This document shows positions 28,060 to 29,187 of a DNA stretch of 30,000 nt, in pieces. How positions within the stretch are numbered: position 1 is the first letter of the stretch; every line of letters starts with the position of its first letter. The DNA comes from Prodigiosinella aquatilis. Lineage in GTDB: Bacteria; Pseudomonadota; Gammaproteobacteria; Enterobacterales; Enterobacteriaceae. The notes under the pieces were generated by a model. It did no database searches, was not told where the DNA came from, and worked only from the letters and a program-made list of their open reading frames with translations. A program made the translations under genes and the position numbers. Where the stretch lies: positions 3,049,621-3,079,620 of the forward strand of contig CP128857.1 of NCBI GenBank assembly GCA_030388725.1, given 5' to 3'.

Positions 28060-28166
28060 ATATCTGTGGGTTGATGGCCAGTCCGGTGTGGACGCACCGG
28101 GCTGGTCGTTCTTTCACTGTCAGGATGGGGCTTAGGGATACCCGTATGCTATTAATGCGGTTTAAT
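28060..28166. repeat. U1: copy of the bidirectional upstream region found in front of the lysis operon
   Basis: The blocks ATATCTGTG, GGCTGGTCGTTCTTTCA and CTATTAATGCGGTTTAA align with 29083..29187 (ATATCTGTG, GGCTTGTCGTTCTTTCA, CTATTAACGCTGTTTAA) at a constant offset of ~1021-1023 bp. TTTAAT at 28161-28166 is a -10 candidate 52 nt before the ATG at 28218. Confidence 0.6.
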
Positions 28167-28217
28167 GGATGCAGGGTCAGAGCTGCTGCACTAAATTCAG
28201 GAAGGGTATTTTCTGGT

Positions 28218-28790
28218 ATGGCAAAGTATTACACGGCTGATTCTGCAAATGGCTTACGCCCGTTTTGCGAGATTATTCAGGGAAACTACGAACCTAAAAA
28301 GCAAGAGCTGGCAACTTTCCTCACTCAGATGTACCCAGATGGGCTGTCAAAGCATGGCCACAATTACCTTTATAATCCCGGTCCGCTTATGGATGAAAAG
28401 AACGGTGATGGTCAGGCATTATTAATTGGCCTGGTATTTGAGCTGGTTCGCCGTAGCCATTTCCCGGAGAAACCATCCCGCTACCAGTCGTTATTTGCCT
28501 GTCAGCACATCAGCGAAGTTAAAGAATTCAGAGAGCAGCTGGCTGATGAGCGTGAGGAAGACGAGATCAGAACTGCACCTATCTATGAAGTATTCACCGA
28601 CGAGGCTGTTCATTGTGGCGATATGAGGTTGCTAAGTGATGATTGCCCGGTGCTTGAATTGTATCGCCGGGCATACCTTTACTGGTCTGGAGAACCTGCC
28701 CCAGTCAGGGAAGGTAAGGAAGAAGAAAAGCCGTTCTGGGAACTGCTGATTCCTCTGCCTATATTGATTGGTCGTCAGATATCGGAGTGA
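28218..28790 (+). CDS. Unknown-function protein D (190 aa); possibly DUF2441-like
   Basis: The start is taken at 28218 (MAKYYTADSANGL...). The in-frame upstream extension from 28071 lies in sequence homologous to the non-coding region U2 and is Arg-rich nonsense. Notable stretches are GLSKHGHNYLY and LVFELVRRSHFPEKPSRYQSLFAC. The DUF2441 resemblance is from memory only. Confidence 0.6.
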   Translation: MAKYYTADSANGLRPFCEIIQGNYEPKKQELATFLTQMYPDGLSKHGHNYLYNPGPLMDEKNGDGQALLIGLVFELVRRSHFPEKPSRYQSLFACQHISEVKEFREQLADEREEDEIRTAPIYEVFTDEAVHCGDMRLLSDDCPVLELYRRAYLYWSGEPAPVREGKEEEKPFWELLIPLPILIGRQISE

Positions 28791-28805
28791 GTAATATAAA
28801 AGCTA

Positions 28806-29063
28806 TCAGCTAATTTGCCTCCTTTTTGGGTTGTGGCTAATTGTCAGTTTTATCTGGCCGATAAGCATTCCATTCAGCTTATTTTCAGGGAGCATTCGTG
28901 GCGTTTTCTCCACCTGCTCAAGCGCGGTTTGCATCTCTCTTATTGCCTCTGCAAGATTGTCAGCATTGACGCTGAGGGTGTAAATTTTTGCCGCAGTTTC
29001 ATACTCATCGCAGGTGATCCCCATCAGGCAGAGTGAGCTTGATTTAGCCGTTGCCGAAGTCAT
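28806..29063 (-). CDS. Small protein S2 (85 aa), paralogue of 26920..27195
   Basis: MTSATAKSSSLCLMGITCDEYETAAKIYTLSVNADNLAEAIREMQTALEQVEKTPRMLPENKLNGMLIGQIKLTISHNPKRRQIS. It converges on gene D with only a 15-bp gap. Confidence 0.65.
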   Translation of the reverse strand: MTSATAKSSSLCLMGITCDEYETAAKIYTLSVNADNLAEAIREMQTALEQVEKTPRMLPENKLNGMLIGQIKLTISHNPKRRQIS

Positions 29064-29082
29064 ACGTTTCCCCTTCAGAAAA

Positions 29083-29187
29083 ATATCTGTGTTTTTTGGC
29101 TAGTCAGGTATTGGTGCGCCCGGCTTGTCGTTCTTTCAAAGTAATCATGCGTTTTGCCCCATCGCTTCACTATTAACGCTGTTTAAA
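29083..29187. repeat. U2: bidirectional upstream region between S2 and the holin-like gene (template of U1)
   Basis: See U1 for the alignment. The plus-strand -10 candidate TAAAAT lies at 29184-29189 with no good -35, which fits an activator-dependent promoter. A minus-strand candidate is CTGACT, 16 nt, TATTTT, reading toward S2. Confidence 0.55.

Follow-up and report, generated by a model that had tools for sequence, protein, structure and literature searches.

Diverged copies of a dam/lysis control region flank an accessory gene pair in a BcepMu-like prophage

This analysis concerns a 30,000-nucleotide (nt) stretch of the Prodigiosinella aquatilis genome (GenBank assembly GCA_030388725.1, contig CP128857.1, forward-strand positions 3,049,621 to 3,079,620), hereafter the window, the right half of which is a BcepMu-type transposable prophage. 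Its subject is a pair of intergenic control regions of this prophage, U1 and U2, and the genes that they separate. The locus begins on the left with S1 (26920-27195, minus strand), an entry of the open reading frame list that encodes a small protein of 91 amino acids (aa) downstream of dam. The dam gene (27208-27972, minus strand) encodes a D12-class N6-adenine DNA methyltransferase (Pfam MethyltransfD12, 2e-27; phrog_56). Intergenic region U1 (27973-28217) lies between dam and gene D (28218-28790, plus strand), whose 190-aa product matches Pfam DUF2441 (2.4e-6) and phrog_5663 (3e-58). Convergent with D is S2 (28806-29063, minus strand), which encodes a small protein of 85 aa and is a paralogue of S1. 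Intergenic region U2 (29064-29242) then leads to the holin gene (29243-29593, plus strand; Pfam Holin_2-3, 9e-41; phrog_1528), which heads the lysis/late operon and is followed by an SLT endolysin gene from 29597.

An original prediction made from the window alone held that the control region of the lysis operon is duplicated in front of D, on the basis of three blocks shared by U1 and U2. All three are present, in the same order and where they had been placed: block 1, ATATCTGTG, at 28060-28068 in U1 and 29083-29091 in U2; block 2, GGCT[G/T]GTCGTTCTTTCA, at 28100-28116 and 29122-29138; and block 3, CTATTAA[T/C]GC[G/T]GTTTAA, at 28149-28165 and 29170-29186, with 15/17 positions identical. The predicted offset of about 1021 to 1023 bp was measured as 1023, 1022, and 1021 bp, respectively, and block 3 ends 52 nt before the ATG of D (28218) and 56 nt before that of the holin gene (29243). 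A repeat search aligned U1 with U2 over 53 nt (74% identity, offset 1022). Computational alignment of both whole intergenic regions, which the original prediction had suggested, gave a local score of 47, compared with 16.0 ± 2.2 in 2000 dinucleotide-preserving shuffles. The block similarity is significant (z = 14.4; 0/2000 shuffles reached 47); no shuffle scored above 28, and 28 was also the maximum obtained elsewhere in the window. Homology was confirmed because relatives carry one copy of the same region. U1 (28060-28165) and U2 (29083-29186) are homologous and constitute a partial duplication of a control region.

The compared loci are labeled with L-numbers, among which L006 is Escherichia coli DA33135, L008 is E. 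coli AF22, L025 is Yersinia enterocolitica, and L030 and L031 are Salmonella. One region between leftward dam and rightward holin is found in Phi06_2974B, GON1437, AF22, and L015-L024; the order S-dam-U-holin occurs in E. coli GON1437, AF22, and ten IMG/VR contigs. The D/S insertion is present in KP12, L005, L011, L013, L014, L025, and L027-L029. KP12, the E. coli 503829 prophage, and L011 contain dam (or a remnant), U1, D, a divergent S-like gene, a short U2, and holin. The arrangement of the window is shared by L013, L014, Y. enterocolitica L025 (D 98% identical), and the Enterobacter/Logan contigs L027-L029, some of them with both S copies. Rightward D and leftward S2 are inserted in the control region in the window and at least six other contigs. 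DA33135 carries three unrelated genes at the cargo site, and dam is missing from L012 and Salmonella L030/L031, where D directly follows a rightward gene (in L012 and L030, one of the repressor operon). The cargo site has at least five alternative arrangements, with D-S2 present or absent among phages otherwise >90% identical. Contigs from Yersinia, Enterobacter, and IMG/VR show the D-S2 event again, their D alleles being 64-98% identical. The dam/lysis site is a cargo hotspot, and the arrangement is widespread, not unique to the window prophage. As a side observation, the AF22 phage copy is inserted in tail gene L of a lambdoid prophage (1462-1761, 37626-38030), and its dam gene (11881-12645) has an internal stop.

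Comparison with the single-copy form also locates the boundaries of the repeat. U1 matches the single-copy region from dam to GTTTA inside block 3, with weak homology in the spacer after TTTCA (32 nt, or 31 in two variants; GCCAGGATGCGGTT vs GCCATCATGCGGTT). U2 matches it from ATATCTGTG through to holin. In DA33135, homology upstream of holin begins exactly at block 3, and the U2 match likewise begins there in most other E. coli prophages (query positions 379-381). We also considered whether the D cassette was joined on its left through microhomology to the lipoprotein gene that precedes D in L012, at the 3' end of that gene (AACGCGATTTACTGGATGTGT vs AACGGGGATTACTGGACGTGT, 17/21 identical); at p ~0.012-0.016 before multiple testing, this is suggestive only and was not adopted.

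S1 and S2 also form a repeat, overlooked in the original prediction (203 nt, 88% DNA identity, offset 1868; 83.5% aa identity). The 846-bp gap between the S1/S2 and U1/U2 offsets is accounted for by the dam gene. Copies of the 7-bp direct repeat GCATATC bracket dam at 27217-27223 (left) and 28058-28064 (right, overlapping block 1). Because fusing both copies recreates the S2-U2 junction, except for a 2-nt gap and a small number of substitutions, S2-U2 resembles S1-dam-U1 minus dam. Loss of the sequence between the repeats would yield the S2-U2 junction. The sequence nearby contains a small inverted repeat, CACAG-N7-CTGTG (28052-28068), of which block 1 is the right arm and the left arm is absent in U2. 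The dam leader additionally contains a perfect 12-bp palindrome, GTCTCGCGAGAC (28020-28031), identical in every dam-carrying relative compared that far upstream.

The original prediction further paired GATGGGG in U1 (28124-28130) with its reverse complement CCCCATC in U2 (29157-29163) as a possible inverted regulator half-site. Both heptamers are present, but relatives do not conserve them as such: in U1 variants this position reads GATGAGG, GATGCGG, or AATGAGG, and the single-copy region has GCATCCTCA. As two 32-nt stretches would share a 7-mer reverse-complement match in about 4% of cases, we treat the pair as chance. An inverted U2 segment as the source of the variable 32-nt U1 segment was also ruled out, since only the GATGGGG(C) core matches and it is not conserved.

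Block 3 corresponds to the leftmost 17 nt of an imperfect dyad of 22 bp, GCTATTAA-N6-TTAAAATC. The dyad box in U2, ACTATTAA-CGCTGT-TTAAAATC (29169-29190, center 29179.5), would span approximately -53 to -32 of the lysis promoter and is a proposed Mor-family site. The U1 box, GCTATTAA-TGCGGT-TTAATGGA (28148-28169), encloses block 3 and has an intact left arm and a degenerate right arm. Located 19 nt from the U2 dyad is GATGCT (29210-29215, plus strand), the proposed lysis -10 element, with a predicted start near 29222 and the dyad center thus ~42.5 bp upstream of that start. GATGCT is invariant in every holin-upstream sequence examined and carries A and T as its second and sixth bases; ATCCAT, located 17 nt upstream, has 1/6 matches to TTGACA. 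A promoter scan found no sigma-70 pair at the lysis promoter, with neither a recognizable -35 nor an extended -10.

This geometry resembles that of phage Mu, where the Mor dyad extends from -51 to -36, centered at -43.5, and the Pm promoter has a -10 without a -35 (PMC4287176). Both Mor and C occupy DNA immediately upstream of the -35 position and interact with the alpha C-terminal domain and with sigma region 4 (bioRxiv 10.1101/2025.05.02.651988). The phage does encode the Mor-family activator anticipated by the original prediction (17638-18057, minus strand; Pfam Mor PF08765, E = 5.5e-42); its gene is the last of the early operon, and the protein is a candidate factor for the dyad boxes. Each of three complete relatives has one Mor-family gene by tblastn. 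Since the dyad position matches that of Mu Mor and there is one Mor-family gene per genome, we infer that the box is the binding site of the single Mor-family activator of the phage and that TAAAAT (29184-29189) is part of it. The lysis -10 is probably GATGCT, not TAAAAT. Of the U2 promoter as originally described, the absence of a -35 therefore stands, while TAAAAT, which had been named as the -10, probably belongs to the activator site, near -40.

As the window ends at position 30000, recurrence of the box at late promoters was checked in relatives (KP12, AF22, 503829, and BcepMu). A pattern derived from KP12 (yTAA-N5-wTTAAwAkC, exactly 19 nt, then nAnnCT and G) occurs exactly four times per complete genome in KP12, the AF22 prophage, and the more divergent 503829 prophage. 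All four are late-strand sites in the intergenic gaps that precede holin, protease/scaffold, tail-assembly genes, and gpW. For the looser pattern TTAAWAKC-19 nt-NANNCT, 4 sites were observed per complete genome, compared with 0.03-0.04 expected by chance. The spacing is constant at 19 nt while the spacer sequence differs between phages, including the diverged 503829. The pattern was then checked on sequences outside its derivation, namely, L012/L030 and BcepMu. The L012/L030 lysis promoters read ATTAAACCSCTTTAAAAKM-19-CACACT. In BcepMu, boxes stand at all four corresponding positions, and 3/4 of them are followed after 19 nt by a hexamer: CAAGAT at the holin site, GACAAT at gp41, and CAACAT at gp49. 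The gp32 site has an identical 18-nt box, but its hexamer would overlap the annotated start codon, and the site is valid only if that start is wrong. The search for further block copies before late operons, another suggestion of the original prediction, retrieved the dyad box at four late sites each in KP12, AF22, 503829, and BcepMu. No description of BcepMu-type late promoters was found in the searchable literature.

The leftward faces of U1 and U2 had been proposed to serve dam-S1 and S2, respectively. This is plausible, as a leftward -10-like hexamer is found at both dyads. In U2, CATGAT (29144-29149, minus strand) lies exactly 19 nt from the dyad, mirrors GATGCT, and is the proposed S2 promoter element. 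In U1, CATCCT (28122-28127, minus strand) lies 20 nt from the dyad and is the proposed dam-S1 element; it is kept in most D-type U1 variants, is CATTCT in L011, and is absent at that position in L005. A leftward nAnnnT hexamer 30.5-31.5 bp from the dyad center is present in 7/7 contexts with a leftward gene versus 1/9 late-promoter variants without one, these contexts having been read partly by hand. The hexamers at dam are CATGAT (single-copy form), CATCCT (D-type U1), and CATCAT (L006); those at S are CATGAT (S2), CAGAAT (the KP12 S-like gene), and TAACAT (the L030 S-like gene); and a 247-aa gene in L006 has CAGGAT. L006, in which the neighboring gene points leftward, likewise retains a box copy next to dam, making three cargo contexts in all. 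The conserved U1 island around block 3 is most simply explained as the activator site of a leftward dam-S1 promoter. A scan for sigma-70 consensus promoters of D, dam, or S2 gave nothing convincing.

The central claim of the original prediction, that D is wired to the same activator signal as the lysis genes, is not borne out. U1/U2 homology ends at GTTTA(A), 28165, inside the right arm of the dyad, leaving it truncated. The D-proximal region beyond (28170-28217, plus strand) is unrelated to the lysis promoter and has CACTAA (28189-28194) at the canonical -10 position. Compared with the lysis spacer, -10, and leader, the 52 nt before D show no similarity in the window (z < 1). We accordingly rejected a diverged lysis spacer, -10, and leader as the origin of this sequence; a shortened L027 variant reached z of 2-2.7, which we judged unconvincing. 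In three D-type variants, the hexamer 19 nt from the D-side dyad is CACTAA, CATTTA, or GTTTGT, none with the invariant final T. There is no nAnnnT hexamer at 29.5-31.5 bp from the U1 dyad center on the D side, the ±1 positions included. Around the U1 box, a 23-nt island, CTATTAAYGCGRTTTAMTGGATG, is conserved in 8 D-type loci between variable flanks. Because homology stops inside the right arm and the leftward CATCCT is kept, the U1 copy appears to have been retained for dam, not acquired for D. What remains of cargo capture by promoter duplication is that part of the dam/lysis control region occurs twice, flanking D-S2; D itself does not lie behind a lysis-promoter copy. The locus would then be an ordinary phage cargo junction, at which a truncated activator site, without a core promoter, is probably all that D inherited.

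Blocks 1 and 2 had likewise been read as lysis-promoter elements. They are not found upstream of holin in KP12, L005, L006, and L011, and because homology upstream of holin can begin at block 3, they are dispensable for the lysis genes. In U1, they overlap a structured element, a 17-bp hairpin followed by CTTTCA (28073-28110, plus strand; -30.1 kcal/mol, z -5.1). Across 13 distinct variants, 98.6% of hairpin positions are paired and 4 pairs show compensatory changes, a level reached by 1/500 shuffles. The plus-strand fold is more stable than the minus-strand fold in 13/13 variants (mean, -30.6 vs -24.2 kcal/mol), owing to G·U pairs. The U2 copy of blocks 1-2 (29083-29138), which is 74% identical to that in U1, is a decayed relic of the hairpin (-10.5 kcal/mol, z -0.9), and the U2 hairpin is shortened in Yersinia L025 and absent in KP12. 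The hairpin is under selection in U1 and is decaying in U2, where it is merely part of the S2 leader. U1 blocks 1-2 are probably a terminator-like, plus-strand insulator that keeps rightward read-through from reaching the late promoter. In KP12 (L007, ~10735-10770, minus strand) and BcepMu (L032, ~24510-24545), the tail-gene late box is adjoined by a textbook intrinsic terminator (GGGGCTTCGGCCCC or GGCCCGCTTCGGCGGGCC, then a T run). The location of this terminator upstream of that box fits the insulator reading of the U1 hairpin.

Taken together, we consider it fairly probable that U1 and U2 are diverged, ~105-bp copies of a dam/lysis control region flanking D (plus strand) and S2 (minus strand), with the dyad as a Mor-type core and the U1 box kept for dam. 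The accessory D/S2 cassette would sit inside a bidirectional dam/lysis control region, each neighbor keeping an activator site. The 22-bp dyad would bind the Mor-family activator at about -53 to -32, upstream of a -10-like hexamer at 19 nt and without a -35, as in the geometry of Mu Pm. The complete U2 dyad may drive transcription both ways, through GATGCT toward the holin/lysis operon and through CATGAT toward S2. U1 would keep the left arm and CATCCT toward dam-S1, with the sequence beyond the right arm belonging to the D cassette, and the U1 hairpin would terminate rightward read-through before the late promoter.

Several points weigh against this interpretation. The leftward hexamer is at 20 nt, not 19, in both U1 and the single-copy region. 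The conserved CTATTAAYGCGRTTTAMTGGATG island, found in all D-type loci, could serve D as well, and the U1 right arm in the window retains TTAA, such that Mor could still bind and weakly activate rightward transcription. The U-tract of the hairpin is imperfect, reading UCGUUCUUUCA, or CUUUCA when counted from the end of the whole 17-bp stem, and a simple terminator scan of the window made no call for the U1 hairpin. The motif definition is partly post hoc, with many of the relatives being close to one another, and the searchable literature yielded no transcript or binding data for this phage family.

Among the alternatives, we regard as rather unlikely that the lysis promoter was duplicated before D and is switched on there by the Mor-type activator of the lysis genes. 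The near identity of block 3 between U1 and U2 favors such a capture, as does the fact that block 3 is the best-conserved island upstream of D in the 8 loci and that the retained part covers the equivalent of the Mu Mor dyad (-51 to -36, PMC4287176). In L030 and L012, a complete extra box, 19 nt, and CACAAT precede an accessory helix-turn-helix (HTH) gene in the same hotspot, so cargo with its own late-type promoter exists among these phages. However, the right arm before D is degenerate (TTAATGGA or TTACTGGA vs TTAAAATC), the hexamer at canonical spacing lacks its final T in all three D-type variants, and the D-proximal 52 nt bear no relation to the lysis promoter. In L012/L030, moreover, D has no box and directly follows a rightward repressor-operon gene, and dam accounts for the retained box just as well. 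The extra box in these two loci (L030, ~4370-4420; L012, 3815-4297) adjoins an S-like gene and stands before an Xre-type HTH gene that is intact in L012 and degraded in Salmonella L030/L031.

There is a small chance that TAAAAT is the true lysis -10 and GATGCTG a leader or early-transcribed element. TAAAAT has 5/6 matches to TATAAT, and TTTAAWAT is the best-conserved part of the box. Nevertheless, the 25-35 nt upstream of it, where a Mor-type site would be expected, are not conserved among the window, Phi06, KP12, and L006; the corresponding hexamer is TAAAAG at the protease/scaffold promoter of KP12 and AF22, and TAAAAG is also found in BcepMu. The downstream hexamer, by comparison, is constant in its second base (A) and its sixth (T) and stays at exactly 19 nt despite a varying spacer. 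We find it improbable that the repeats are neutral recombination scars, left by the joining of two related phages or by tandem duplication, with U1 block 3 and U2 blocks 1-2 functionless. The decay, shortening, or deletion of the U2 hairpin in relatives would be expected of scars, and the 74% identity of the copies, the 7-bp repeats bracketing dam, and the variety of cargo arrangements at the hotspot also agree with them. Scars do not account for the U1 box as a conserved island between variable flanks in 8 loci, for its retention beside dam in three cargo contexts, or for the compensatory changes in the U1 hairpin. Chance similarity of U1 and U2 has a negligible probability: although the individual blocks are short, they are collinear, relatives carry homologous single-copy regions, and the shuffle test refutes it.

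A second hairpin, GTCTCC-N10-GGAGAC (29216-29237, plus strand; -13.6 kcal/mol, z -3.5), encloses the ribosome-binding site of holin and covaries to GCCTCC/GGAGGC in L012 and L030. Because its 5' arm starts right after the proposed -10 GATGCT, late transcripts would lack this arm, and the ribosome-binding site would be masked in read-through transcripts. Translational discrimination of this kind is reportedly known for T4 lysozyme gene e and soc. As in the holin case, gene e is said to have its ribosome-binding site in a hairpin, such that read-through transcripts are untranslatable and late-promoter transcripts translatable. The holin case differs in that it is drawn from sequence, covariation, and a predicted start only, and we mention it as a side observation.

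D scores 28.1 bits against DUF2441 (Pfam cut-off, 25). Its structural model (predicted local distance difference test score [pLDDT], 80) has a Foldseek match to the DUF2441 structure PDB 2AUA (E = 3.9e-7), and a profile match to 2AUA was obtained at 4.4e-7. With the Pfam gathering score passed and the fold of the family's solved member shared by the predicted structure, D is a member of DUF2441. Pfam places DUF2441 in the ADP-ribosyltransferase clan (PMC7955679); comparison of the D model with pertussis and cholera toxins was not significant (E, 0.65-2.4). Residues H46, R88, Y89, E124, and E175 of D are invariant. D is more variable than its surroundings (64-98% aa identity vs >90% for flanking genes), and the closest D and S proteins are those of Y. 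enterocolitica. D and an S-family gene always form a convergent pair, 8-38 nt apart, in every D locus examined (window; L001, L010-L014, and L025-L031), including a contig of a Pantoea-like insect symbiont, which was the single locus retrieved when genome contigs were searched with D. In the window, the convergent stop codons of D and S2 are 15 nt apart, leaving no room for a cassette terminator. S is also found alone, following dam, where D is absent. Neither S1 nor S2 could be assigned to a family in Pfam, PHROG, PADLOC, or NCBIfam; PADLOC and NCBIfam gave no hits for D, S1, S2, or the neighboring membrane protein; and the S model (pLDDT, 54) was too poor for a fold search. A toxin-antitoxin pair was considered for D/S and set aside, as the genes are convergent and not co-transcribed, S occurs without D, and there are no PADLOC hits.

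A bolder extension of the proposed arrangement is possible, although we hold it to be doubtful. One 22-bp Mor-type dyad would serve as a two-way late-promoter core, for lysis on its right and for dam/S on its left, and cassettes would enter precisely at the dyad, duplicating it and keeping both modules activator dependent. Cargo read-through into holin would be neutralized by the ribosome-binding-site hairpin, and hypervariable D, with its ADP-ribosyltransferase-like fold, together with an obligatory S, may form a late- or lysogen-expressed conflict module.

The remainder of the prophage supports its assignment. The DDE transposase (22121-23914) is 52% identical to BcepMu gp09 over 98% of the protein, and with the collinear early, lysis, and late modules, this identifies the window prophage as a BcepMu-like transposable phage. 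The early operon, on the minus strand, comprises a Ner-like gene (25556-25744), a gene for a small IclR-type HTH protein, the transposase gene, an AAA+ ATPase gene (Pfam AAA_22), GemA, and, last, the Mor-family activator gene. To the right, on the plus strand, are the repressor gene (25781-26191) and a membrane protein gene (26225-26821), which lies between the repressor and S1/dam. This slot between repressor and dam/S varies too, as L001, L003, L025, and L028 have a lipoprotein or other proteins in place of the membrane protein. Ordinary host genes (an MFS transporter gene and a shikimate dehydrogenase-like gene; window, 1-17500) are found left of the Mor gene, which places the prophage end near 17.5 kb. 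A search of 26800-29700 against Rfam at E ≤ 1 returned no match.

Among known systems, Mu offers the closest regulatory parallel, with Pm and the promoters Plys, PI, PP, and Pmom under Mor/C control. In both phages, a Mor-family activator ends the early operon; the promoters have a -10 without a -35 and an imperfect dyad just upstream of or overlapping the -35 position (center ~42.5 here vs 43.5 in Mu); and four late promoters occupy comparable places (lysis, protease/scaffold, tail, and baseplate). The phage type in the window differs in having one Mor-family gene and no separate C, and so probably a two-step cascade. The dyad TnTTAA-N6-TTAAnA is peculiar to BcepMu-like phages and, unlike in Mu, is apparently used both ways, toward dam/S and toward lysis. 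BcepMu (Bcepmuvirus) and BcepMu-like enterobacterial prophages share the gene order Mor, GemA ... transposase ... repressor, cargo slot, holin, SLT endolysin, and Rz, and BcepMu has the box-19-hexamer architecture at the same four gaps (with the gp32 overlap given above). It differs in the cargo slot, which holds rightward gp18-20; as it has no dam, D, or S, its control region is not split. D-S2 resembles phage morons and accessory hotspots in being present or absent between >90% identical phages at a module boundary. In contrast to morons, D-S2 has no terminator of its own, no own promoter was identified for it, and it lies between diverged direct repeats, 105 bp long, of the control region of its host phage.

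BcepMu-like transposable prophages are common in E. coli, Klebsiella, Yersinia, Salmonella, and Burkholderia. For these phages, the analysis offers a testable late-promoter consensus, TnTTAA-N6-TTAAnAkC, 19 nt, and nAnnCT/nAnnAT, of which we found no published description. It also locates the module boundaries at a cargo hotspot and would explain why short, diverged control-region repeats flank accessory genes. A control-region repeat beside cargo need not mean co-regulation, and a motif upstream of a cargo gene can belong to its opposite-strand neighbor.

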